This document shows positions 2-19,622 of a stretch of DNA of 35,772 nucleotides, one piece after another; position 1 is the first letter of the stretch, and each line of letters starts with the position of its first letter. Under the pieces are notes generated by a model. It searched no databases and was not told the DNA's origin. It saw only the letters and a program-made list of their open reading frames with translations. This DNA comes from Gallionellaceae bacterium (GTDB lineage: Bacteria > Pseudomonadota > Gammaproteobacteria > Burkholderiales > Gallionellaceae): positions 1 through 35,772 of the forward strand of contig DATFUZ010000066.1 of NCBI GenBank assembly GCA_035260545.1, given 5' to 3'. The position numbers and the translations under genes were made by a program.

Positions 2-1372
2 ATCCTGAAACACGTTTCAATTCCAAGCGATGCATCCGGCGCGGAACTTATTCAGATACTGGAACAAGTTATCGGAAGTAACGAACAACAGCGAAAGAAC
101 CGAGAGAAACTCCAAAGAGAGCTTAGCCACGGAGTCGCGCCACTCCCATATGCTTGGCGCCCTCGCAATGTTCTCGACGGCATATCCGATTTGCCAATGT
201 TATGGGAAATCTCGAAGGTTTCATCGTGGGGTGCGCGCCATCTGCATTTGACGATGGCAACAAACGACTGGAAGCCGACGGATCTCCCCGCTATGCGGTG
301 CCGTGTTCCGCTGCTAGATTTACTGTCGTTGATGGTGATTTCCGATCTTGATTTGTTTCGTCCACTATTTGGGCTATTTCCGAAGATTGCAGTTGGCAAG
401 GCTACAATGACAGAATTGCAGCGGCTGCTGACGCCCTTATCGGGGACCCTGTATCGGAATAAGATTGCCGCTATTCAAGTAGCACTAAAGGAGCATTTTT
501 CGCAAATTGAACAGCCCGAGGCTTCGCAGCCATCGAACGACCGCTTCGTTAGTGACCAATGGGACTCGTTAGAACTCATCGAAATAGCGAAGAGCGGGAG
601 GTACCTGGTTTACTCTGATGACGTGCTATTTAGAATCTATTCGCAACAGCCGGGAATTTGTACTCTGGACTTGCTCTGCGCGCTAGACGACACAGGCGAA
701 TTCTCTGCAAGGGACGTCGCAATGAAGATAGCAACGCTCTGCTCGTGGCGCGTCGGGCTGTCGATCACACTACGCTATCAACTCGCGATATTACCGGACG
801 CGTTAGGCGGAGCAAAAAGCATCAAAGAAGGGATCAATGTATTGTCTGCTGACGAGCACTGCAATGCACTTTTCAGCGCAATCTGGAATATTGAAAAGCC
901 ATTTGGCGATCTGCAAGGCCACGCGGGGTTGATTCTCAGGAAACTCGCCGACGACAAGAACAATTCAATAAAGAGCGTCGCGGCCCTGGCAGGTTTCTGG
1001 CTCAGCAAAGCTAAGCTGCATAAACAAGCTCCAGCGCCGATTGATCGCATGGTAGCGCTTTTAATTGGGCAGGCAACCTTTATCGAGCACCCAGTCACGG
1101 CGGAGGCTGCACATCGACTGTGGAGCGTGTATACGGATCTTATCGAGGACATCCATGGCCACCATATGGATGACGAGAAACTTTGGCAGTCTATTCGCAT
1201 CTTAGGAGAGGTAGCGGCAGAAAGCGATAGGCATCACTCGCATAGTGGCGCTAGATCATTGGGGACAAGGCTCGCCAGCGGCTTAATAACAGGCACAAGC
1301 GATTATGAGTTATTTAGCAAGGCGTACAACAGCAAGCTCATTTCTTTAGCGGCGCAAGACAAGCGGAAATGA
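2..1372 (+). CDS. Hypothetical protein, 5'-partial. Its reading frame is open from the window edge. The first ATG is at 191 and the stop is at 1372.
   Basis: This is the frame of the ORF-track entry 191..1372. I read codons from position 2 to 190 and found no stop, so the gene probably starts upstream of the window. The region is roughly 50% GC against a backbone near 65%. I recognised no family motif. Confidence 0.5.
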   Translation: MLKHVSIPSDASGAELIQILEQVIGSNEQQRKNREKLQRELSHGVAPLPYAWRPRNVLDGISDLPMLWEISKVSSWGARHLHLTMATNDWKPTDLPAMRCRVPLLDLLSLMVISDLDLFRPLFGLFPKIAVGKATMTELQRLLTPLSGTLYRNKIAAIQVALKEHFSQIEQPEASQPSNDRFVSDQWDSLELIEIAKSGRYLVYSDDVLFRIYSQQPGICTLDLLCALDDTGEFSARDVAMKIATLCSWRVGLSITLRYQLAILPDALGGAKSIKEGINVLSADEHCNALFSAIWNIEKPFGDLQGHAGLILRKLADDKNNSIKSVAALAGFWLSKAKLHKQAPAPIDRMVALLIGQATFIEHPVTAEAAHRLWSVYTDLIEDIHGHHMDDEKLWQSIRILGEVAAESDRHHSHSGARSLGTRLASGLITGTSDYELFSKAYNSKLISLAAQDKRK

Positions 1373-1528: not shown

Positions 1529-1963
1529 TTAGCTGGCGGAGGCTATCAGAGCGAGAATGCCTAGAACCGCGAGAAATCCGGTCCACTCCCTTGTTTGCGA
1601 GCTCTCAGAGGCGCCGCCGGTGACCCGATTGGCAAAGGTCTCACAGTTGTTGTCCAGCAAGTGGTAACCCGTACGGCCGGATACTTCCTGCTCGATCCGT
1701 CGCAAGGTCGCATCGTGCTCAGACATCGGCACCTCGCGAACTTTCTTGACCGGTTTCCCTGCGGTAAACTGTTCATACGTCACATAGTGTGGCCCCTTGT
1801 CACTGGTACTATGGGCAACGGTTCCGTCGAGAAGATGCACGCCCCAATGCTCGCCAGGTCCCGATAGCTTTGGTCGCACGATGAGTGAAATGGCGGAAGA
1901 TTGCGGAAAAGTAAGCCAACTGTAGAGACTCATAAGATCACCTATTCGAGAGGAGCCAGACAA
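1529..1963 (-). CDS. LRAT/PLAAT-like (circularly permuted NlpC/P60 papain-fold) acyltransferase/phospholipase-type enzyme with a C-terminal transmembrane anchor
   Basis: The 144-aa product has His-containing segments GEHWGVH and GYHLL upstream of a C-terminal NCETFANRV motif. That matches the LRAT-family NCEHF catalytic Cys box. A hydrophobic tail WTGFLAVLGILALIASAS follows. This His...His...Cys order with a C-terminal transmembrane helix is the LRAT/HRASLS architecture. The gene overlaps the upstream XRE gene by 26 nt, which suggests a shared operon. Composition is low-GC. Confidence 0.6.
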   Translation of the reverse strand: MSGSSRIGDLMSLYSWLTFPQSSAISLIVRPKLSGPGEHWGVHLLDGTVAHSTSDKGPHYVTYEQFTAGKPVKKVREVPMSEHDATLRRIEQEVSGRTGYHLLDNNCETFANRVTGGASESSQTREWTGFLAVLGILALIASAS

Positions 1964-2403: not shown

Positions 2404-3996
<1,593 letters not shown>

Positions 3997-4133
3997 GACT
4001 ATCTAATGAGATAATGTTATATCTTTATTTATATAGTTTTCGCATTCTCCCACGACAGCCCAGCGCCTGCAATAATACATTTCCCCCGTTATTTCAAAAC
4101 ACTATTAACTTTTTTCGGCCCTGACCGGCGCGC

Positions 4134-4149
4134 TGGCACGCTTTTCGCA
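4134..4149 (+). promoter_or_regulatory. Sigma-54 (-24/-12) promoter TGGCACG-N4-TCGCA driving the rtc operon
   Basis: The sequence is TGGCACGCTTTTCGCA. The consensus is TGGCACG-N4-TTGCA, so there is one mismatch in the -12 element. It lies in the AT-rich divergent intergenic region between rtcR and the rtc genes, where RtcR-dependent promoters sit. Confidence 0.55.
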
Positions 4150-4323
4150 AATAGGTATGCGGTCGCCGACCTGACGCAAGGCCCACGGGAAAGGGGTTCT
4201 AAGCCCCGCCGGTGCGCTGCAGCCGGATTCGGTTCTGTCGTTGCGGTGTATGCCGCCCCGCAGGAAAGTGATCACTGGCTAGAGGGCAATTTCAGTGAGT
4301 ACTCATCCTCACGAGTTGCCTGC

Positions 4324-4397
4324 CACTGGATAGCTCAGTTCGGTAGAGCAATCGACTGTTAATCGATTAGTCGCGGGTTCGAATCCCGCTCCAAAAA
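4324..4397 (+). ncRNA. tRNA-Asn-like (GUU anticodon) non-coding RNA element. It has an intact D-arm, anticodon arm and T-arm, but a degenerate acceptor stem and no CCA. It is a Y-RNA-like tRNA mimic in the rtc leader.
   Basis: The D-arm is GCTC-AGTTCGGTA-GAGC. The anticodon stem ATCGA/TCGAT carries the loop CTGTTAA (4356-4362), with the GTT anticodon at 4358-4360. The T-arm is GCGGG-TTCGAAT-CCCGC. The would-be acceptor strands are CACTGGA and TCCAAAA, which pair for only 4 bp. The 3' side continues AACTG rather than CCA. The element is on the same strand as rtcB, about 160-175 nt downstream of the sigma-54 promoter. Confidence 0.6.
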
Positions 4398-4657
4398 CTG
4401 TCTTGAACAGGCAGCTTTTAAAAACGCAGTACCCGCCGGTTGTGGCATGCGCAAGCATCCACCGCCGGCCCGGCCCGGCGCCCGGACCGCGATTGCGGCA
4501 AGGCCATGCCGGCCCGCGGCAGCGATGTAAGCCCTCATGCTTCGGCACGTGGGCAAGCAGAGCCGCCGAGGGCTCGCGGAAGCCTCCCCGCAATCGCCGA
4601 ACGGGTTGCCCGCCGGGCCGGCGCCAGACCGGCACATTTACATAAGGAGAATGGAAC

Positions 4658-5803
4658 ATGGCTATGCTGAAGCGTTTTGTGATCAAGAAGAATGAAAAGG
4701 GCGCGTTGCTGCGCAACGGCGACTTTGAGCGCATCCTGAGCGCGGGCCGCCATTACTTCTTCGACCCGCTGGGCCAGCTTTCGGTGCAGGTGTGGAAGAT
4801 CGACACCCCCATGCACGACCTGGCGACGGTGGACTACCTGGCGGAGCATGATCCGGAGGAGTTGGATGAGCACTTTGTTTGCATGACGTTGAACGAGGAC
4901 CAGGCCGGCTTGCGCTACGAGAACGATGTGCTGGTGGAGGTGCTGCCTCCCGCGTCGCGCCTGGTGCTGTGGAAGGGTTTCATGAAGCACCGCCTGGAGG
5001 TGGTAGACCTGACGCAGGACTACACGGTGAAGCCCGCGCTGGTGCGCCACCTGGCGCAGACCGCCCCGCGCGGCCGCCTGGTGAACGGGCTGAACGGCGT
5101 GCTGGTGGCGCAGGTGCCGCCCTACCATGTGGGCATGCTGAAGGTGGACGGCAAGATCGAACGCCTGCTGCAGCCCGGCGTGGAAGCGTTCTGGCGCTTC
5201 AACCGCAACATCGACGTGGTGCTGGTGGATACCCGCCTGCAAGCCATGGAGGTGAGCGGGCAGGAGATCCTCACCCATGACAAGGTGGGGCTGCGCCTGA
5301 ACCTGGCGGCGACCTGGCGCTACACCGATGTGCTGCTGGCGCACGAGAAGCTGGCGCGTCCGGCCGAGCATCTGTACCGCGAGCTGCAGTTCGGCTTGCG
5401 TGAGGCAGTGGGCACGCGCACTCTGGACGAGCTGCTGGAAAACAAGCAGGTCATCGACGAGGTGGTGGGCGCCCACGTCGCGCAGAAGCTGGCCGGCTTC
5501 GGGCTGGAGGTAGGCGGTGTCGGCGTGAAGGACATCGTGCTGCCGGGCGAGATGAAGACCATCCTGGCCCAGGTGGTGGAGGCGGAGAAGGCGGCGCAAG
5601 CCAACGTGATCCGCCGCCGCGAGGAAACCGCCGCCACCCGCTCGCTGCTGAACACGGCGAAGGTGATGGAGGAAAACCCCGTCGCCCTGCGCCTGAAGGA
5701 GCTGGAGACGCTGGAACGTGTGGCCGAGCGTATCGACCGCATCAGCGTGTTCGGCGGTCTGGACCAGGTGCTGAATGGCCTGGTGCAGATCAAGGGCGCG
5801 TAA
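4658..5803 (+). CDS. SPFH/band-7 (slipin/flotillin-like) domain protein with a ~190-aa N-terminal extension and no predicted N-terminal transmembrane helix
   Basis: The C-terminal half has the typical SPFH/band-7 segments VKDIVLPGEMKTILAQVVEAEKAAQANVIRRREETAATRSLLNTAKV and ALRLKELETLERVAERIDRISVF. The ribosome-binding site AAGGAG lies 8 nt upstream of the ATG at 4658. I could see no hydrophobic N-terminal helix. Confidence 0.8.
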   Translation: MAMLKRFVIKKNEKGALLRNGDFERILSAGRHYFFDPLGQLSVQVWKIDTPMHDLATVDYLAEHDPEELDEHFVCMTLNEDQAGLRYENDVLVEVLPPASRLVLWKGFMKHRLEVVDLTQDYTVKPALVRHLAQTAPRGRLVNGLNGVLVAQVPPYHVGMLKVDGKIERLLQPGVEAFWRFNRNIDVVLVDTRLQAMEVSGQEILTHDKVGLRLNLAATWRYTDVLLAHEKLARPAEHLYRELQFGLREAVGTRTLDELLENKQVIDEVVGAHVAQKLAGFGLEVGGVGVKDIVLPGEMKTILAQVVEAEKAAQANVIRRREETAATRSLLNTAKVMEENPVALRLKELETLERVAERIDRISVFGGLDQVLNGLVQIKGA

Positions 5804-5863
5804 TACCATGCCGCTGCCGGAAGGCGGCGGCATGGCCCATAATGAAACAAAGAGGAAGCAATC

Positions 5864-7081
5864 ATGGATTACCAACTGCTGGAAGTCGCAAACGGCAAGC
5901 CGATCAAGATGTGGACCGAAGGCGTGCCGGTGGAAGGCGAGGCGCAGAAGCAGCTGATGAACACGGCGCAGATGCCCTTCATCTACAAGCATCTGGCGGT
6001 GATGCCGGACGTGCACCTGGGTAAGGGCTCGACCATCGGCAGCGTGATTCCCACCCAGGGCGCGGTGATTCCCGCGGCCGTGGGCGTGGACATCGGCTGC
6101 GGGATGATGGCCGTGCGCACGACCCTTCAAGCCACGGACCTGCCGGATAACCTGCTGGGCCTGCGCTCCGCCATTGAGCGCGCGGTGCCGCACGGGCGCA
6201 GCAACTCCCGCGGCGGACGCGACAAGGGTGCGTGGGAAACGCCGCCGCAAAGCGTAGATGCGCATTGGGCGCAGTTGCTGCCGGGTTTCGAGCGCATCAC
6301 GGAGAAGCACCCCAAGCTCAAGAACACCAACAACCATAAGCATCTGGGGACGCTGGGAACTGGCAACCACTTCATCGAGGTGTGCCTGGACCAGGCGGAC
6401 GCGGTATGGTTCATGCTGCACTCCGGTTCGCGCGGGGTGGGGAATGCAATCGGCTCCCGCTTCATCGAGCTGGCGCAGCAGGATATGCGAGAGCACCTGG
6501 CCAACCTGCCGGACCGCGACCTGGCCTACCTGAAGGAAGGCACGCAGCACTTCGATGACTATATCGAGGCGGTGGGCTGGGCGCAAGATTTCGCCCGGCG
6601 TAACCGCGAGGTGATGATGGCCAATGTTGTGGCGGCCGCGCGCAGCGTGATCGCCAAGCCCTTCGAGACGGATGTGGCGGCGGTGAACTGCCACCACAAC
6701 TACGTGCAGAAGGAAACCCACTTCGGCGCGGAGGTGCTGGTGACCCGCAAGGGCGCGGTGTCGGCGCGGAAGGGGCAACTGGGCATCATCCCCGGCTCGA
6801 TGGGCGCGAAGAGCTACATCGTGCGCGGCCTGGGCAACGAGGAGTCGTTCTGCTCGTGCAGCCACGGCGCGGGACGCACCATGAGCCGGAACGAGGCCAA
6901 GCGCCGCTATACGGTGGACGACCAGATCAGCGCCACGGCGCATGTGGAATGCCGCAAGGATGCCGCGGTGATCGACGAGATCCCGATGGCCTACAAGGAC
7001 ATCGATGCGGTGATGCAGGCGCAGCGCGCGCTGGTCGAAGTGGTGCATACGCTGCGCCAGGTGGTCTGCGTGAAGGGCTGA
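5864..7081 (+). CDS. rtcB: RtcB RNA-splicing ligase (3'-phosphate/2',3'-cyclic phosphate to 5'-OH RNA ligase)
   Basis: The 405-aa product is near-identical in layout to E. coli RtcB. Matching segments are MPDVHLGKGSTIGSVIP, GVDIGCGM, HLGTLGTGNHFIE, CHHNYV, SCSHGAGR and the tail LRQVVCVKG. The ribosome-binding site GAGGAAG lies upstream. Confidence 0.95.
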   Translation: MDYQLLEVANGKPIKMWTEGVPVEGEAQKQLMNTAQMPFIYKHLAVMPDVHLGKGSTIGSVIPTQGAVIPAAVGVDIGCGMMAVRTTLQATDLPDNLLGLRSAIERAVPHGRSNSRGGRDKGAWETPPQSVDAHWAQLLPGFERITEKHPKLKNTNNHKHLGTLGTGNHFIEVCLDQADAVWFMLHSGSRGVGNAIGSRFIELAQQDMREHLANLPDRDLAYLKEGTQHFDDYIEAVGWAQDFARRNREVMMANVVAAARSVIAKPFETDVAAVNCHHNYVQKETHFGAEVLVTRKGAVSARKGQLGIIPGSMGAKSYIVRGLGNEESFCSCSHGAGRTMSRNEAKRRYTVDDQISATAHVECRKDAAVIDEIPMAYKDIDAVMQAQRALVEVVHTLRQVVCVKG

Positions 7082-7210
7082 AAAACTACTGCGGAAACCG
7101 CCTGCGGCGTTGTTCGGTGCTCGGCATCCTCATGTACTTAAACGTACACTGCGGTGCCTGCGCGCCGTGCGCCTTGCATCCGGCCTTCTCGCCACGTCTT
7201 TTTACCAACC

Positions 7211-7242
7211 GGAAGGTCCGGAGATTGACCTTCCTTTTTCTT
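7211..7242 (+). terminator. Rho-independent terminator or attenuator between rtcB and the downstream nucleotidyltransferase gene
   Basis: The stem is GGAAGGTC (7211-7218). The 8-nt loop is CGGAGATT. The second stem arm is GACCTTCC (7227-7234). A T-tract TTTTTCTT (7235-7242) follows immediately. Confidence 0.5.
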
Positions 7243-7243
7243 G

Positions 7244-7259
7244 AGACACAAAAGTGTGT
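7244..7259. promoter_or_regulatory. Perfect palindrome GACACA-AAAG-TGTGTC just upstream of the nucleotidyltransferase gene ribosome-binding site. It is a candidate operator or internal promoter element.
   Basis: The palindrome is 16 bp with 6-bp arms. It lies directly after the terminator and about 20 nt before the ribosome-binding site GGAGAG. Confidence 0.25.
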
Positions 7260-7278
7260 CAGTTTAATTCTGGAGAGC

Positions 7279-8100
7279 ATGATGGACAGCATCAAACCAA
7301 CCATACTCAGTGCACACCCGATACAGCCGGAGGTGCGCGCGCGCATCGTCGAGGCGCTGGAGCAGATCGAGGCGGAACACCAGGTAAAGGTGCTGTTCGC
7401 CTGCGAGTCGGGCAGCCGCGGCTGGGGCTTCGCCTCGCCGGACAGCGACTACGACGTGCGCTTCGTCTATGTGCACAAGCTGCCGTGGTACCTGACGGTG
7501 CACGCGCCGCGCGATGTGATCGAATTGCCGATCAGCGACGAGCTGGACGTGAGCGGCTGGGAACTGCGCAAGGCGCTGCAACTGCTGCGCAAATCCAACC
7601 CCACGCTGCTGGAATGGCTGGATTCGCCCGTGGTGTATCGCGAGGACGCGGCTTTCGCCGAGCGCATGCGCCGCTTCGTGCCGGAATTCTTCTCCGGACA
7701 GGGGGTGCGCCACCACTATCTGTCGATGGCGAAGAAGAACTTTCGCGGCTATCTGCAGGGCGAGAGCGTGCGGCTGAAGAAGTACCTCTACGTGCTGCGC
7801 CCGCTGCTGGCGGTGCGCTGGATAGACGGCGGGCGCGGCATGCCTCCGATGCGCTTTGCCGACCTGGCGCAGGCGACGGTGGACGACGCCGCGCTGGCGC
7901 ATGAAATCAACCGCCTGCTGGAAATCAAGATGCGCGCGGGCGAGGCGGAGTACAGCGCACGCTGGCCGGCCATCCACGACTTCATCGCGGCCGAGCTGGC
8001 GCGGGTGGAGCGCAGCCCGGAGCACGCGAGGCCGGCCGGGAGCACGGCGGTGCTGGACCGCTTCCTCGCTGAAACGGTGCGCGCGTTTTCGCGCGCCTGA
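7279..8100 (+). CDS. Pol-beta-superfamily nucleotidyltransferase domain protein (predicted NTase family associated with RNA-repair loci)
   Basis: The N-terminal segment is VLFACESGSRGWGFASPDSDYDVRFVY. This is the G[SG]-x9-13-D-x-D minimal nucleotidyltransferase signature. I chose the ATG at 7279, which has the ribosome-binding site GGAGAG 2-7 nt upstream. The ORF track extends further upstream, but that extension has GC-artefact composition. Confidence 0.8.
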   Translation: MMDSIKPTILSAHPIQPEVRARIVEALEQIEAEHQVKVLFACESGSRGWGFASPDSDYDVRFVYVHKLPWYLTVHAPRDVIELPISDELDVSGWELRKALQLLRKSNPTLLEWLDSPVVYREDAAFAERMRRFVPEFFSGQGVRHHYLSMAKKNFRGYLQGESVRLKKYLYVLRPLLAVRWIDGGRGMPPMRFADLAQATVDDAALAHEINRLLEIKMRAGEAEYSARWPAIHDFIAAELARVERSPEHARPAGSTAVLDRFLAETVRAFSRA

Positions 8101-8119
8101 GGATTAACACAGGAACTGG

Positions 8120-9148
8120 ATGGATGACATGAACATGCTGAATCTGGACGGATCGCAAGGCGAAGGCGGCGGGCAAATCCTGCGCAGCGCGCTGACGCTT
8201 TCCACGATCACCGGCACGCCGTTCCGCATCGAGCGCATTCGTGGGGGACGCGCCAAGCCTGGCTTGCTGCGCCAGCACCTGACGGCGGTCACGGCCGCCG
8301 CGGCAGTCAGCGGCGCGCAGGTGTCCGGGAACGCGCCGGGGTCGCAGACCCTGGAATTCGTTCCCGGCGCCATCCGCGGCGGCGACTACCGTTTCGACAT
8401 CGGCACGGCGGGGAGCTGCACGCTGGTGCTGCAGACGGTGCTGCCCGCGCTGTGGTTCGCCGACGGCCCGAGCACGATCACTGTCAGCGGCGGCACACAC
8501 AACGGCGCCGCGCCGCCCGCGGATTTCCTGATCCGCTCCTGGCTGCCGCTGATGCGGCGCATGGGGGTGGAGATGGACATCGAACTGGAGCGCCACGGGT
8601 TCTACCCGGCGGGCGGCGGGCGGGTGCGCGCATCGGTCACGCCTTGCGGGAGCTTGCTGCCCCTGCATCTCGAGGCGCGTGGAGAGCATATCGCCACCCG
8701 CGCCGTCGCGGTCGTCGCAGGTCTGCCGGCCGAGATTGCGGGCCGCGAACTGGATCATCTCGCGGCGACATTCAGCGAGGCGGAATGCGAAACACGGGTG
8801 CTGAGTTCGCGCGAAGGCCCGGGCAACGTGGTGATGGTCGAAATCAGCCACGCCAGCCACACCGAGGTCTTCACCGGTTTCGGCGAAAAGGGGCTGCCTG
8901 CCAAAACCGTGGCCGCACGGACCGCACACGCGGCCGCGAGCTGGCTGGCCAGCGGCGCAGCGGTGGGCGAGCATCTGGCGGACCAGCTGCTGCTGCCGAT
9001 GGCGCTGGCAAAGGGGGGCGCTTTTACGACCGCGCTGCTGTCCTCGCACACGCGGACCAACATCGGCGTGATCGAGAAGTTTCTGCCATTGGAGTTCGAT
9101 GTCGCGCAGGAAGACGGCATCCACCGGGTAAGCCTTACCCGGGAATAG
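8120..9148 (+). CDS. rtcA: RtcA RNA 3'-terminal phosphate cyclase
   Basis: The 342-aa product is collinear with E. coli RtcA. Matching segments are LDGSQGEGGGQILRSALTLS, RAKPGLLRQHLTAV, GGDYRFDIGTAGSCTLVLQTVLPALWFADGPS, RHGFYPAGGG and AVGEHLADQLLLPMALA. Confidence 0.9.
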   Translation: MDDMNMLNLDGSQGEGGGQILRSALTLSTITGTPFRIERIRGGRAKPGLLRQHLTAVTAAAAVSGAQVSGNAPGSQTLEFVPGAIRGGDYRFDIGTAGSCTLVLQTVLPALWFADGPSTITVSGGTHNGAAPPADFLIRSWLPLMRRMGVEMDIELERHGFYPAGGGRVRASVTPCGSLLPLHLEARGEHIATRAVAVVAGLPAEIAGRELDHLAATFSEAECETRVLSSREGPGNVVMVEISHASHTEVFTGFGEKGLPAKTVAARTAHAAASWLASGAAVGEHLADQLLLPMALAKGGAFTTALLSSHTRTNIGVIEKFLPLEFDVAQEDGIHRVSLTRE

Positions 9149-10547: not shown

Positions 10548-10790
10548 CGCCCTGTGCTTCCGGCGGCATGCCGTTCAAACGGCAAGGCCGGCGCGAGCCC
10601 AAGCCCAAGCCCCTCTCAAATCGGGCTGATTTCCGGGGGAGCCAGCCAGCCCATATGCCCTGCCAGAAATGGCGGGGCTTTTTTCTGGTGCATGGCCGCT
10701 TTGCGATGTTCCATTCGCTGAGTATCAGGCCGGCAGCGTGCCCGGAACGGACATGATGTTTGCAGATAAGCGGACCTTTTGTAGATTAAT

Positions 10791-10855
10791 GGGTGGAGCG
10801 TAGCGATACCCAACAGCTTATCCCCGAACTTGATGGGTATCGCTGCGCTCCACCC
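10791..10855. repeat. 22-bp inverted repeat (GGGTGGAGCGTAGCGATACCCA ... TGGGTATCGCTGCGCTCCACCC, 1 mismatch) with a 21-nt spacer. It is a large stem-loop at the boundary of the low-GC islet.
   Basis: I read the arms directly at 10791-10812 and 10834-10855. The element lies 25 nt downstream, on the minus strand, of the stop of the 391-aa gene. No U-tract follows on either strand. Confidence 0.5.
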
Positions 10856-10879
10856 ATCCCACGCTCGCTCATCTGCGCT

Positions 10880-12055: not shown

Positions 12056-12155
12056 TGTACGCTTTGGCTATCCTGATAACGCCGATCAGACGGATTTCAA
12101 TCCTGTTCCTCGAAACTACTGAGGCTTAACAGAGCTCGCGGGGCGCAATAAGCGT

Positions 12156-12243
12156 GCGTAGCCCGGATGCAGCGGAGCGGAATCCGGGTTGAGTCCGCAG
12201 GTTAACCCATCCCGGATTCAATTGCATTGCATCCGGGCTACGC
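12156..12243. repeat. Nested inverted-repeat element. An outer 16-bp perfect inverted repeat GCGTAGCCCGGATGCA/TGCATCCGGGCTACGC encloses an inner 9-bp inverted repeat GAATCCGGG/CCCGGATTC.
   Basis: The outer arms are at 12156-12171 and 12228-12243. The inner arms are at about 12180-12188 and 12211-12219. The element lies immediately 3', on the minus strand, of the 180-aa gene's stop at 12248. It is upstream of the 391-aa gene's promoter region. Confidence 0.5.
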
Positions 12244-12247
12244 TTGC

Positions 12248-12790
12248 TCAAAGGAGGGTTTTGCGTTTTCCCCGTTCCGGGTCGGTAAGCCAGAAAATAA
12301 GCACGGCCGCCAGCAAGGCCATGAGGGCGGCGGATTGCCCCCAAGCTACGCTCCCAAAATAGCGAAGGTATATGCCGGCAATAGCCAATACCACACCGAG
12401 CGCGCCGGCCGCCACGCGCAGCGCGGATGGCCACTGGCGTACCTGCGCCGGTAGCCGGGACGCAGGCCGCGGCTGGTCTATCTGCTCGCCGCTCTCGCAC
12501 GTCTCGCCGTCGTCTCCCTGCACCTTTGCTGCGAATTCGCGCGCCATGACCACCATCTTGTCGACGATCGCCTTGTCCGGGTTCTTGGTATAAATTTGCC
12601 CGTTTTTCCAGTCGAACCATGGCTCCGCATATTCGCACTTGCCGTGCCACATCGTGAAATATGGTCCTTGGTCCGGCAACAACTGTAGTTCTGAATCGCG
12701 TTCGACGTAGGCCAGCCATTCGGCGGCGGTGATCTCATTACCTTCGTCAATCCAGTGGTCGCGTCGAGTTATATGAAAATCGTAGCCCAC
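12248..12790 (-). CDS. Hypothetical membrane protein (180 aa). It has a ~110-aa N-terminal soluble domain and two C-terminal transmembrane helices.
   Basis: The GTG start at 12790 is preceded by the ribosome-binding site AGGAA with 5-nt spacing. The hydrophobic helices are ALRVAAGALGVVLAIAGIYL and SAALMALLAAVLIFWL. The gene is low-GC. I recognised no family. Confidence 0.55.
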   Translation of the reverse strand: MGYDFHITRRDHWIDEGNEITAAEWLAYVERDSELQLLPDQGPYFTMWHGKCEYAEPWFDWKNGQIYTKNPDKAIVDKMVVMAREFAAKVQGDDGETCESGEQIDQPRPASRLPAQVRQWPSALRVAAGALGVVLAIAGIYLRYFGSVAWGQSAALMALLAAVLIFWLTDPERGKRKTLL

Positions 12791-13380: not shown

Positions 13381-15231
13381 ATGAATGTATTTTATGAAGA
13401 GGACGGGGGCTTCAAGGTCGGCACCGTCTTGACGGACAACACGACCTCGATGCACGTGGAAAGCCTGCACGGCAAGCGCAGCAAGATCAAGGCAGCCAAT
13501 GTGCTGTTGCGATTTACCCAGCCCGGCCTGAGCGAGTTCCTGGCTCAGGCGGAGGACGTTGCCGGCGGGATGGATGTGGAGTTTCTCTGGGAGTGCAGCC
13601 CGCCGGAGGAATTCGCCTTCGAAACGCTGGCGGCGGAGTATTTCGGCCACCCCCCCAGCCCGGCGGAGGCCGCGGGCGCGCTGATCCGACTGCATTCGGC
13701 CCCGATGTACTTCTACAAGAAGGGCAAGGGCCATTACAAGGCGGCGCCGCCGGATGCGCTCAAGGCAGCCCTGGCCGGTGCGGAGAGGAAGCGCTTGCTC
13801 GCGGAGCAGCAGGCGCAATTCACGGCGCAACTGTCGGACTTCACCCTGCCCGCGGAATTCGAGGGCAAGATACCGGAGCTGCTGTACAAGCCCGACCGCA
13901 ATACGATTGAAGTGAAGGCGCTTGAGGCGGCGTGCGCCGCGACCCATCTTTCGGCGGCGCACCTGCTGGAGCGCTGCGGGGCGATCCCGTCCAGCCACGA
14001 CTATCATTTGCAGCGCTTCCTGTTCGAGCATTTCCCGCGGGGCACGGGTTTTCCGCAGGTGAGCGTGGACATGCACCCGGAGCTGCCGCTGGCCGAGGCG
14101 CGCGCCTTCAGCATAGACGACGCGGCAACGACGGAAATCGACGATGCCTTCTCGGTGGTGCCGCTTCCCGGCGGCAACTGGCGCGTGGGCGTGCACATTG
14201 CGGCGCCCGCCTTGACCATCGCGCCCGGCTCGCCCGTGGACGAGATCGCGGGGCAACGGCTGTCCACCGTCTATATGCCGGGCAGCAAGATCACGATGCT
14301 GCCGGACAACGTGGTGCAGGCCTTCACCCTGAACGAGGATACGACCTGCCCGGCCGTGTCCATGTACCTGGAAGTGGATGCGGACACGCTGGAGATCAGG
14401 GGCACAGAAAGCCGCATCGAGCGCATCCACATCGCGAACAATCTGCGCCACGACACGCTGGAGCCGCTGTTCAACGAGGCGACACTCGCTGCGGGCAAAC
14501 GTGACTATCCCTACGCCGCCGAACTCGCGCTGCTGTGGAATCTCGCCGGCAAGCTGGAAGCGTTGCGCGGGAAATCCGCCGATAGCAACGCGCAGCAAAT
14601 GGATTATAATTTCCATGTTGAAGACGACCGCATCGCCATCAGCGAACGCAGGCGCGGCTCGCCGATAGACAAGGTGGTGAGCGAGCTGATGATCTTCGTC
14701 AACAGCGCGTGGGGCAAGCTGCTGGCCGAGCACAATGCAGCCGGGATTTACCGCACCCAGAACGGCGGCAAGGTCAAGATGAGCACGGTGCCCGGACCGC
14801 ATCAGGGGCTGGGCGTGGCGCAATATCTGTGGTCGAGTTCGCCGCTGCGGCGCTACGTGGATCTCATCAACCAGCGCCAGATCGCGGCCGTGCTGCGCGG
14901 GGAAACGCCGCCCTATGCGCCGAATGATCCGGCGATCTTCGCCGCGATGCGCGATTTCGACGCCGCTTATGCGGTCTACAACGAGTTCCAGCGCGGCATG
15001 GAGCGCTACTGGTGCCTGCGCTGGCTGCTGCAGGAGAACGTGAAGGAGGCCGAGGCCGTGGTGCAGCGCGAAAACCTGGTGAAGCTGGCGCGCATTCCGT
15101 TTTACGCACGCATTCCGTCCCTGCCGGAATCGCCGCCCAATACCCGCGTCATGCTGGAGATCGGCGACATCGACCTGCTGGACATGGAATTCAAGGCGCG
15201 ATACATCAATACCGTGGAGGCAACTGCTTGA
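13381..15231 (+). CDS. RNB-domain 3'-5' exoribonuclease (RNase II/R family)
   Basis: The RNB catalytic motif FSIDDAATTEIDDAFSV is present. The C-terminal signature YLWSSSPLRRYVDLINQRQ matches the RNase II/R SPIRRY region. The product is 616 aa. Confidence 0.85.
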   Translation: MNVFYEEDGGFKVGTVLTDNTTSMHVESLHGKRSKIKAANVLLRFTQPGLSEFLAQAEDVAGGMDVEFLWECSPPEEFAFETLAAEYFGHPPSPAEAAGALIRLHSAPMYFYKKGKGHYKAAPPDALKAALAGAERKRLLAEQQAQFTAQLSDFTLPAEFEGKIPELLYKPDRNTIEVKALEAACAATHLSAAHLLERCGAIPSSHDYHLQRFLFEHFPRGTGFPQVSVDMHPELPLAEARAFSIDDAATTEIDDAFSVVPLPGGNWRVGVHIAAPALTIAPGSPVDEIAGQRLSTVYMPGSKITMLPDNVVQAFTLNEDTTCPAVSMYLEVDADTLEIRGTESRIERIHIANNLRHDTLEPLFNEATLAAGKRDYPYAAELALLWNLAGKLEALRGKSADSNAQQMDYNFHVEDDRIAISERRRGSPIDKVVSELMIFVNSAWGKLLAEHNAAGIYRTQNGGKVKMSTVPGPHQGLGVAQYLWSSSPLRRYVDLINQRQIAAVLRGETPPYAPNDPAIFAAMRDFDAAYAVYNEFQRGMERYWCLRWLLQENVKEAEAVVQRENLVKLARIPFYARIPSLPESPPNTRVMLEIGDIDLLDMEFKARYINTVEATA

Positions 15232-19532: not shown

Positions 19533-19622
<90 letters not shown>

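Follow-up and report, generated by a model that had tools for sequence, protein, structure and literature searches.

The DNA considered here is a stretch of 35,772 nucleotides (nt) from a Gallionellaceae bacterium (assembly GCA_035260545.1, contig DATFUZ010000066.1, positions 1-35,772 of the forward strand), referred to below as the window. In the region of approximately 2404-9148 it harbors an RNA-repair operon controlled by RtcR and sigma-54, which additionally comprises a tRNA mimic and the genes of a soluble SPFH protein and a Pol-beta nucleotidyltransferase (NTase) but lacks Ro60. The gene rtcR (2404-3996, minus strand) is divergent from the operon; its product, a sigma-54-dependent activator with an N-terminal RtcR/CARF domain, is recognized by the Pfam models RtcR (E = 2.6e-88) and Sigma54_activat (1.5e-49) and by the NCBIfam RtcR equivalog model (847 bits, cut-off 650). 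The plus strand carries, in this order, a gene for an SPFH/Band_7 protein (4658-5803; Pfam Band_7, 9e-29), located 60 nt upstream of rtcB; rtcB itself (5864-7081), which encodes the RNA 3'-phosphate/2',3'-cyclic-phosphate ligase (Pfam RtcB, 2.1e-132, full length); rlaP (7279-8100), which encodes an RNA-ligase-associated Pol-beta NTase of 273 residues (Pfam RlaP, PF10127, 4e-98); and rtcA (8120-9148), the gene of the RNA 3'-terminal phosphate cyclase (Pfam RTC, 3.4e-83, and RTC_insert; NCBIfam equivalog, 461 bits).

The RlaP protein carries the NTase motif GS...DSDYD (sequence GSRGWGFASPDSDYD) and has no sequence match in the Protein Data Bank (PDB), and its gene is flanked by rtcB and rtcA, an arrangement also seen in P. 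fluorescens and P. aeruginosa. A Pol-beta NTase gene had been named at this position in the original prediction made for this DNA; the assignment holds, while the start of the gene is corrected to the ATG at 7279, which is preceded by the ribosome-binding site (RBS) GGAGAG at 7272-7277, as read from the sequence. No TROVE/Ro60 domain was found among the 30 open reading frames (ORFs) of the window that were scanned against Pfam, including those of the operon, and the region 4000-4700 has no match to the Y RNA families of Rfam even at E values up to 10. The lack of Ro60 asserted in the original prediction is thereby borne out, and the parts that it listed, i.e., rtcR, a sigma-54 promoter, a tRNA-like element, a soluble SPFH protein, RtcB, an NTase and RtcA, were all recovered at or near the positions it gave.

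Relatives of the locus were collected by a search with the SPFH protein, which yielded 293 genomic relatives; the loci analyzed are the best 80 of these (62-87% protein identity), from Gallionellaceae, Rhodocyclales, Burkholderia, Ralstonia and Pseudomonas, and neighborhood counts refer only to loci with enough flanking sequence. The operon is preceded by the sigma-54 promoter TGGCACGCTTTTCGCA (4134-4149, plus strand), with TGGCAC as the -24 and TCGCA as the -12 element, from which transcription would start near 4160. The pattern TGGCAC-N5-TYGCW has this single match in the 35.8-kb window, where 0.11 would be expected. The promoter is found 137 nt from the start codon of rtcR, and 61 of 69 related loci have a sigma-54 motif at a matching distance from rtcR (119-176 nt; 282 nt in one locus); the motif is also invariant in the alignment of leaders described below (A1). 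The length of the region between rtcR and the SPFH gene varies between 600 and 759 nt over 69 loci, with a median of 664 nt, which is also the length found in the window.

The ORF of the SPFH protein encompasses 381 residues, but because the homologues are 379 residues long, translation more likely starts at the Met codon at 4664. The protein had been predicted to lack transmembrane segments, and indeed no hydrophobic segment of 19 residues is found (the maximum Kyte-Doolittle value over 19 residues is 1.20). A sequence search of the PDB gives stomatin matches over residues 178-377, and in the AlphaFold model (mean pLDDT 80) residues 1-115 form an all-beta N-terminal region, which is followed by the SPFH domain and, at residues 295-360, by a helix. 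When this model is compared to known structures using Foldseek, matches are obtained to stomatin, HflK/C, prohibitin, erlin and the shoulder and cap-helix region of MVP. In sequence databases the protein is named "slipin family protein" or "HflC-like regulator of protease activity". By sequence and model, it is a soluble protein with a stomatin-like core and a long helix, devoid of a membrane anchor, and by structural analogy it probably assembles into a ring or cage via the long C-terminal helix.

The tRNA-like element between the promoter and the SPFH gene is only the center of a conserved, structured leader of about 500 nt. It had initially been described as an RNA module; the module is present, but it is embedded in this larger RNA. 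At the 5' end of the leader is a domain (approximately 4156-4265, plus strand) where a nested hairpin is combined with a long stem and the sequence GUAUGCCGCC is invariant; a profile search using nhmmer matches it at 4156-4257 (E = 4e-22), and its helices 1-4 display compensatory changes. It is followed by module 1 (4284-4325, plus strand), in which a 7-bp acceptor-like stem (GGGCAAU/GUUGCCU) encloses a hairpin and is followed by GCCA. At the same position the relatives have CCGGGTTCGATTCCCGG, and in most of them the hairpin is a canonical T arm (CCGGGUUCGAUUCCCGG). The two helices of this module, 5 and 6, covary, and the minimum-energy fold of 4276-4420 reproduces both module 1 and the cloverleaf that follows it.

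In the window, an unrelated 5-bp hairpin is found at 4290-4315 in place of the module-1 T-loop GGUUCGAUUCC (compared with loci L081, L082 and L001). This loss is shared only with the relative whose SPFH protein is 95% identical, while relatives at 90% and 87% identity keep the T-loop, which points to recent decay of one RNA module. Module 1 is thus best described, as judged from these alignments, as a degenerate tRNA minihelix that in the window has lost the T-loop seen in its relatives. Two complete tRNA-like elements in tandem are found at L061:5577-5722, L072:5603-5745, L074:5614-5754, L062:1979-2121 and L069:1161-1311. Three of these (L061, L072 and L074) are Pseudomonas loci, where module 1 is a complete second tRNA-like element, in contrast to the acceptor-stem hairpin without a T-loop in the window. 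In most betaproteobacteria the first element is reduced to the acceptor stem and the T arm, followed by NCCA.

Module 2 is the cloverleaf tRNA-like element (4327-4393, plus strand), located 260 nt upstream of the SPFH start and composed of a 4-bp acceptor stem, a D arm, an anticodon arm with the loop CUGUUAA and a T arm, all of which are conserved or covary in the relatives. ARAGORN reports this element as tRNA-Asn(GTT) at 4324-4398, and the Rfam tRNA model gives 58.5 bits (gathering score 29), aligned over model positions 4-67 only. The acceptor stem is limited to 4 bp (UGGA/UCCA) and positions 1-3 and 70-72 are unpaired; the discriminator-CCA end is missing and the 3' flank reads AAAAC. For contrast, the tRNA-Leu(TAG) of the window (19534-19618, minus strand) is normal-looking, with a full 7-bp acceptor stem and an alignment to positions 1-71 of the Rfam model. 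Among the orthologous elements, about 25 loci have 7-nt anticodon-like loops with at least 12 different triplets, including CAU, AAU, GAU, GUU, ACG and UUU. A GNRA tetraloop (GCAA, GAAA or GCGA) replaces the anticodon loop in at least 23 loci, probably in about 31 when eight GAAA loops that were mis-parsed in the loop count are added, and a few loci carry UUCG-type loops instead. The "anticodon" GUU is common to the window and its closest relative (95% SPFH identity) only. This comparison suggests that the anticodon loop is dispensable in the leader RNA. Because the loop is not conserved, the designation "tRNA-Asn-like" from the original prediction can be kept with regard to its tRNA-like character, as reflected in the Rfam score, while the Asn identity arose by chance in this lineage.

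Directly 3' of the cloverleaf is a short conserved hairpin (4398-4414, plus strand), where all five pairs of helix 11 show compensatory changes; a U tract follows this hairpin in some loci only. The remainder of the leader is a 3' domain (4426-4633, plus strand) with the conserved sequence GCAGUACCC and a closing helix formed by 4435-4440 and 4628-4633. Within this domain a side hairpin capped by a GNRA loop is found next to an irregular hairpin, approximately 190 nt in size and variable at its tip, which corresponds to the inverted repeat I2 with arms of 42 nt; in its helix 14, compensatory changes are seen in 30 of 31 pairs. The closing helix stops about 10 nt before the RBS, i.e., about 25 nt before the SPFH start codon, and leaves the RBS free. 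The leader of the window folds with z = -6.8.

The extent of conservation was assessed using an alignment of 35 leaders, each less than 80% identical to the others, in which conservation reaches well beyond the cloverleaf. RNAalifold predicts 94 pairs, 67 of which show compensatory changes. In the refined consensus structure, four spurious pairs that involved the promoter were removed and the module-1 helices were added, which gives 98 pairs. This structure was compared to controls in which the pairing partners were slid by 1-3 columns and to 500 shuffles: 93.1% of the cells are paired (36-44% in the slid controls), 70 of the 98 pairs are changed on both sides (30-45), and the covariation score is 0.414 (0.07-0.10), values that none of the 500 shuffles reach. 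The covariation evidence for the leader structure, as derived from these alignments, is strong.

Profile searches of 83 sequences with nhmmer detected the 5' domain and module 2 in 79 and the 3' domain in 78 of them. The loci without a leader (L003, L029, L046 and L052) are cut off upstream, and the 3' domain was undetected by its profile in L048, L051 and L074. Wherever enough upstream sequence is available, i.e., in 79 of 79 loci, the 5' domain and the tRNA-like module precede the SPFH gene. The leader RNA thus accompanies the SPFH gene in every assessable case. The pair also occurs on its own, with neither rtcR nor rtcB nearby, in L032, L038 and L062 as well as in the metagenome loci L128 and L191. 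Among the proteins encoded near such stand-alone pairs are a TIR-methyltransferase fusion (L032:5911-7239) and, at L062:85-1116, a DUF2201 vWA-like/metallopeptidase protein.

The linkage was also approached from the RNA side by scanning metagenomes for the 20-nt motif GCAGTACCCGYCGGYYGYGG of the 3' domain, which gave 119 matches (L083-L201). The motif is unspecific, i.e., about 16 of the 119 matches are true leaders, and an SPFH gene is present in all 14 true leaders with enough downstream sequence. The same motif occurs on about 100 metagenome contigs that carry neither another part of the leader nor an SPFH gene. Taken over genomes and metagenomes, the sequence comparison indicates that what is conserved as a unit is the RNA together with the SPFH gene rather than SPFH with RtcB.

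In Rfam 15 no family other than tRNA matches any part of the leader, either in the window or in 10 related loci, and at E values up to 10 only chance-level matches appear in Rfam (Burkholderiales-2, 18 bits with a threshold of 68; BTH_s19, 11 bits with a threshold of 153). Three surveys of bacterial RNA motifs from the Breaker laboratory make no mention of rtcB, rtcR, SPFH, stomatin, band 7 or tRNA-like in their main texts. More generally, no description of the ~500-nt leader RNA was found in the literature searched, which lacked the text of Burroughs and Aravind 2016.

A divergent rtcR gene is found in 67 of 71 SPFH loci. The SPFH and NTase genes had been expected to co-occur with rtcB in related genomes, and this expectation holds for the SPFH gene, which is followed by RtcB in 58 of 64 loci, and less often for RlaP (28 of 64); RtcA is present downstream in 24 of 64. 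All three genes are found in 12 of the 64 loci, and the window therefore represents one of several variants. Six loci, in which the leader RNA is present as well, lack rtcB over at least 5 kb downstream of the SPFH gene; in the three of these that were examined (L032, L038 and L062) rtcR is also missing and the neighbors are unrelated. In many relatives a gene for a treble-clef zinc-finger protein of 130-165 residues (PF13451, zf_Tbcl) is located between the SPFH gene and rtcB (e.g., L006:7231-7626, L011:7152-7637, L016:7184-7630 and L061:7178-7576), whereas the window has no such gene, only the gap at 5804-5863. Some relatives carry a gene for a HEAT-repeat protein of 470 residues or a class I methyltransferase between rtcB and rlaP (L017:8904-10316, L018:3730-5142, L042:9345-10025).

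In the window, rtcB and rlaP are separated by a spacer of 197 nt (7082-7278) with two hairpins, at approximately 7133-7152 and at 7211-7234, the latter of which, together with a T run, was identified in a consensus scan as a terminator-like element (7211-7242, plus strand). An internal terminator at this position was part of the original prediction. The hairpin and T run are present, but in relatives the spacer is almost absent (L002 and L010) or different, with its own hairpin and T run (L001). Furthermore, the region contains four terminator-like hairpins, where 4.1 are expected from shuffled sequence. Given a spacer that lacks conservation and a number of hairpins no different from chance expectation, an internal terminator was rejected as a designed feature of the operon; the spacer hairpin may attenuate read-through partially in this lineage.

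The operon type as such has been described previously. According to a 2018 preprint (10.1101/312249), Burroughs and Aravind in 2016 described RtcB beside a Band-7 protein and a predicted "band 7-associated tRNA", abbreviated b7a-tRNA. By this account, their system shares with the window RtcB beside Band-7, a tRNA-like noncoding RNA (ncRNA), the ligase-associated NTase RlaP and the lack of Ro60, i.e., the gene set is no different. The same 2016 analysis gave PF10127 the name RlaP because of its location next to RNA ligase genes, as related in a 2025 preprint (PMC12776372). The latter preprint also reports that P. fluorescens and P. aeruginosa carry rtcR/rtcB-rlaP-rtcA, and that Pseudomonas RlaP attaches one or two nucleoside monophosphates to the 3'-OH ends of RNA and lets over-trimmed, repaired tRNA be aminoacylated again.

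In P. aeruginosa PAO1, PA4581 (rtcR) and PA4582-rtcB-PA4584-rtcA display a gene order and orientation identical to those of the window, which differs by the additional spacer between rtcB and rlaP. PA4582 and PA4584 have been described as members of the rtcBA operon, and in PAO1 PA4582 is upregulated 3.2-fold with H2O2, alongside pyocin genes. In P. paraeruginosa (locus L048) the SPFH protein is 66% identical to that of the window and the plan of the leader is alike. The "third architecture" put forward in the original prediction is therefore not new, since the type was predicted in 2016 and is present in P. aeruginosa. It also follows from its presence in the literature that the window reveals no new kind of system.

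The E. coli rtcR/rtcBA locus likewise consists of RtcR, a sigma-54 promoter, RtcB and RtcA, but lacks an SPFH gene, RlaP and a tRNA-like RNA, and has a short leader only. The Salmonella rsr-yrlBA-rtcBA operon is similar in that it combines RtcR/sigma-54 control, a tRNA-mimicking ncRNA within the operon and a ring- or cage-forming RNA-associated protein encoded upstream of rtcB. In the window, however, this protein belongs to the SPFH rather than the TROVE type, there is no match to a Y RNA family, and the tRNA mimic has a full anticodon arm and is found in the 5' leader rather than between genes. In the eukaryotic vault, the shoulder domain of MVP is SPFH-like and continues into a long cap helix, and MVP forms a soluble cage associated with small RNAs. 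The model of the window SPFH protein matches MVP chains with Foldseek E values of 2e-11 to 2e-8, and the likeness extends over shoulder and cap helix, but the N-terminal array of MVP repeat domains is absent; the comparison is an analogy and not a membership.

The gene identities, the conservation of the promoter, the covariation of the RNA structure and the strict linkage of RNA and SPFH gene are direct results; we infer that the RNA and the protein bind each other, that the SPFH protein oligomerizes, that the leader is processed and that the pair has a scaffold role. Specifically, the leader RNA and the SPFH protein most likely constitute a tRNA-mimicking scaffold that assists tRNA repair in a manner similar to that of Ro60 and Y RNA, a reading to which we assign a probability of about 0.6. 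In Salmonella, RtcR is activated by damaged tRNAs, where fragments of tRNA that carry a terminal 2',3'-cyclic phosphate act as the signal. In the proposed sequence of events, RtcR would sense damaged tRNA ends through its CARF domain and would then fire the promoter at 4134-4149, such that the transcript would begin with the structured leader and its two tRNA-like modules. This leader, whole or processed, would be the cognate partner of the soluble, oligomeric, stomatin-like SPFH protein, and the resulting ribonucleoprotein would take the role of Ro60-Y RNA (Rsr-YrlA), i.e., recruit or organize repair enzymes and broken tRNAs. RtcA would turn a 3'-phosphate into the 2',3'-cyclic phosphate, which would be sensed by the CARF domain of RtcR and could also be joined by RtcB. 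RlaP would restore the one or two nucleotides lost from 3'-OH ends, and RtcB would seal the break.

A number of observations weigh against such a scaffold. The decay of the module-1 T-loop in the window and its closest relative implies that parts of the RNA can be dispensed with. More than half of the loci have no RlaP, and more than half have no RtcA, and the full five-gene pathway is accordingly one variant among several. The b7a-tRNA was at the time of the 2018 preprint (10.1101/312249) a strongly tRNA-like but predicted element without experimental validation. Furthermore, the leader alignment contains no conserved terminator between the RNA and the SPFH gene, which leaves room for a purely cis-acting role.

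Such a role would mean that the leader is a 5' untranslated region that controls stability, translation or processing of the SPFH-rtcB mRNA and that no ncRNA is released. It would account for the leader being always on the same strand and directly upstream of the SPFH gene, as well as for the conserved distance from the leader to the start codon. We nevertheless consider this explanation unlikely, because the closing helix of the 3' domain does not sequester the RBS of the SPFH gene and because known attenuators are far simpler than a covarying, multi-domain, tRNA-mimicking fold of this size. In addition, the analogous Y RNAs of Salmonella lie in the operon yet act in trans, according to 10.1101/312249 and Hughes et al. 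A different role in trans would be that of a ribotoxin decoy or sentinel, where the tRNA-like modules are cut by, or titrate, anticodon nucleases, such that either cyclic-phosphate fragments feed back on the CARF domain of RtcR or the mimic competitively protects the real tRNAs. In line with this idea, the leader RNA is the first product of the induced promoter, and some of the many triplets in the 7-nt anticodon-like loops resemble known ribotoxin targets. Examples of such targets are GUU, recognized by colicin E5, as well as Arg (colicin D) and Lys (PrrC). Also, YrlA's tRNA-like domain was proposed by Hughes et al. to be a competitive nuclease inhibitor, but these authors found YrlA to be uncleaved in Salmonella. 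The GNRA and the few UUCG-type loops described above would, moreover, be unrecognizable to an anticodon nuclease. Because the RNA is kept with the SPFH gene in loci without rtcR and rtcB, its primary tie is to the SPFH protein and not to RtcR signaling, and we regard a decoy function as unlikely.

Two further explanations are contradicted by the data. The SPFH gene could be a passenger, i.e., a membrane-scaffold or protease-regulator gene unrelated to RNA repair, as the slipin and HflC-like database labels and the detection of PA4582 in an envelope proteome might suggest. The absence of a transmembrane segment, the position between the sigma-54 promoter and rtcB, which is kept in 58 of 64 genomes, and the strict link to a structured RNA render this highly improbable. 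Even less probable, to the extent that it hardly needs to be considered, is that rtcR and the operon are separated by a normal, working tRNA-Asn gene at 4324-4398. The ARAGORN call and an Rfam score well above the gathering score would speak for such a gene, whereas the shortened acceptor stem, the lack of a discriminator-CCA end, the many different anticodons or tetraloops of the orthologous copies and the position downstream of a sigma-54 promoter, inside a larger covarying RNA, are incompatible with it.

Outside the operon the window contains ordinary chromosomal housekeeping genes, including sucAB, gltA, sdhA, aroE, mtgA and pabB. Just past rtcR are two ORFs (191-1372, plus strand, and 1529-1963, minus strand) that could be a toxin or conflict-system neighbor; one gives a weak PIN-TPR-GreABC match (27.1 bits, cut-off 27.8) and the other is LRAT/NlpC-P60-like. 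A gene for an RNB-domain exoribonuclease of the RNase II/R type (13381-15231, plus strand) is found about 4 kb downstream of rtcA. There are also two strong local inverted repeats, at 12151-12248 and 10789-10857, one with 44-nt arms (77% complementarity) and the other with 27-nt arms (93%).

From the above discussion, the role of a soluble SPFH protein together with a tRNA-like RNA emerges as the problem that the present comparative data sharpen. A more far-reaching proposal, which we regard as tentative and somewhat doubtful, is that the b7a-tRNA, rather than being a separate gene of tRNA size, is the core of a multi-domain RNA of about 500 nt that co-evolves strictly with a soluble, cage-type SPFH protein, also outside rtc operons, and that the two would form a previously undescribed, vault-like ribonucleoprotein, a counterpart of Ro60-Y RNA. 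If this is true, the leader would be one of the few bacterial ncRNAs that exceed 400 nt. Gene-for-gene orthologues are found in tractable organisms, i.e., in Burkholderia and in P. aeruginosa (PA4581-PA4585), in which one can separate the models of a scaffold, a decoy and a cis-acting leader.

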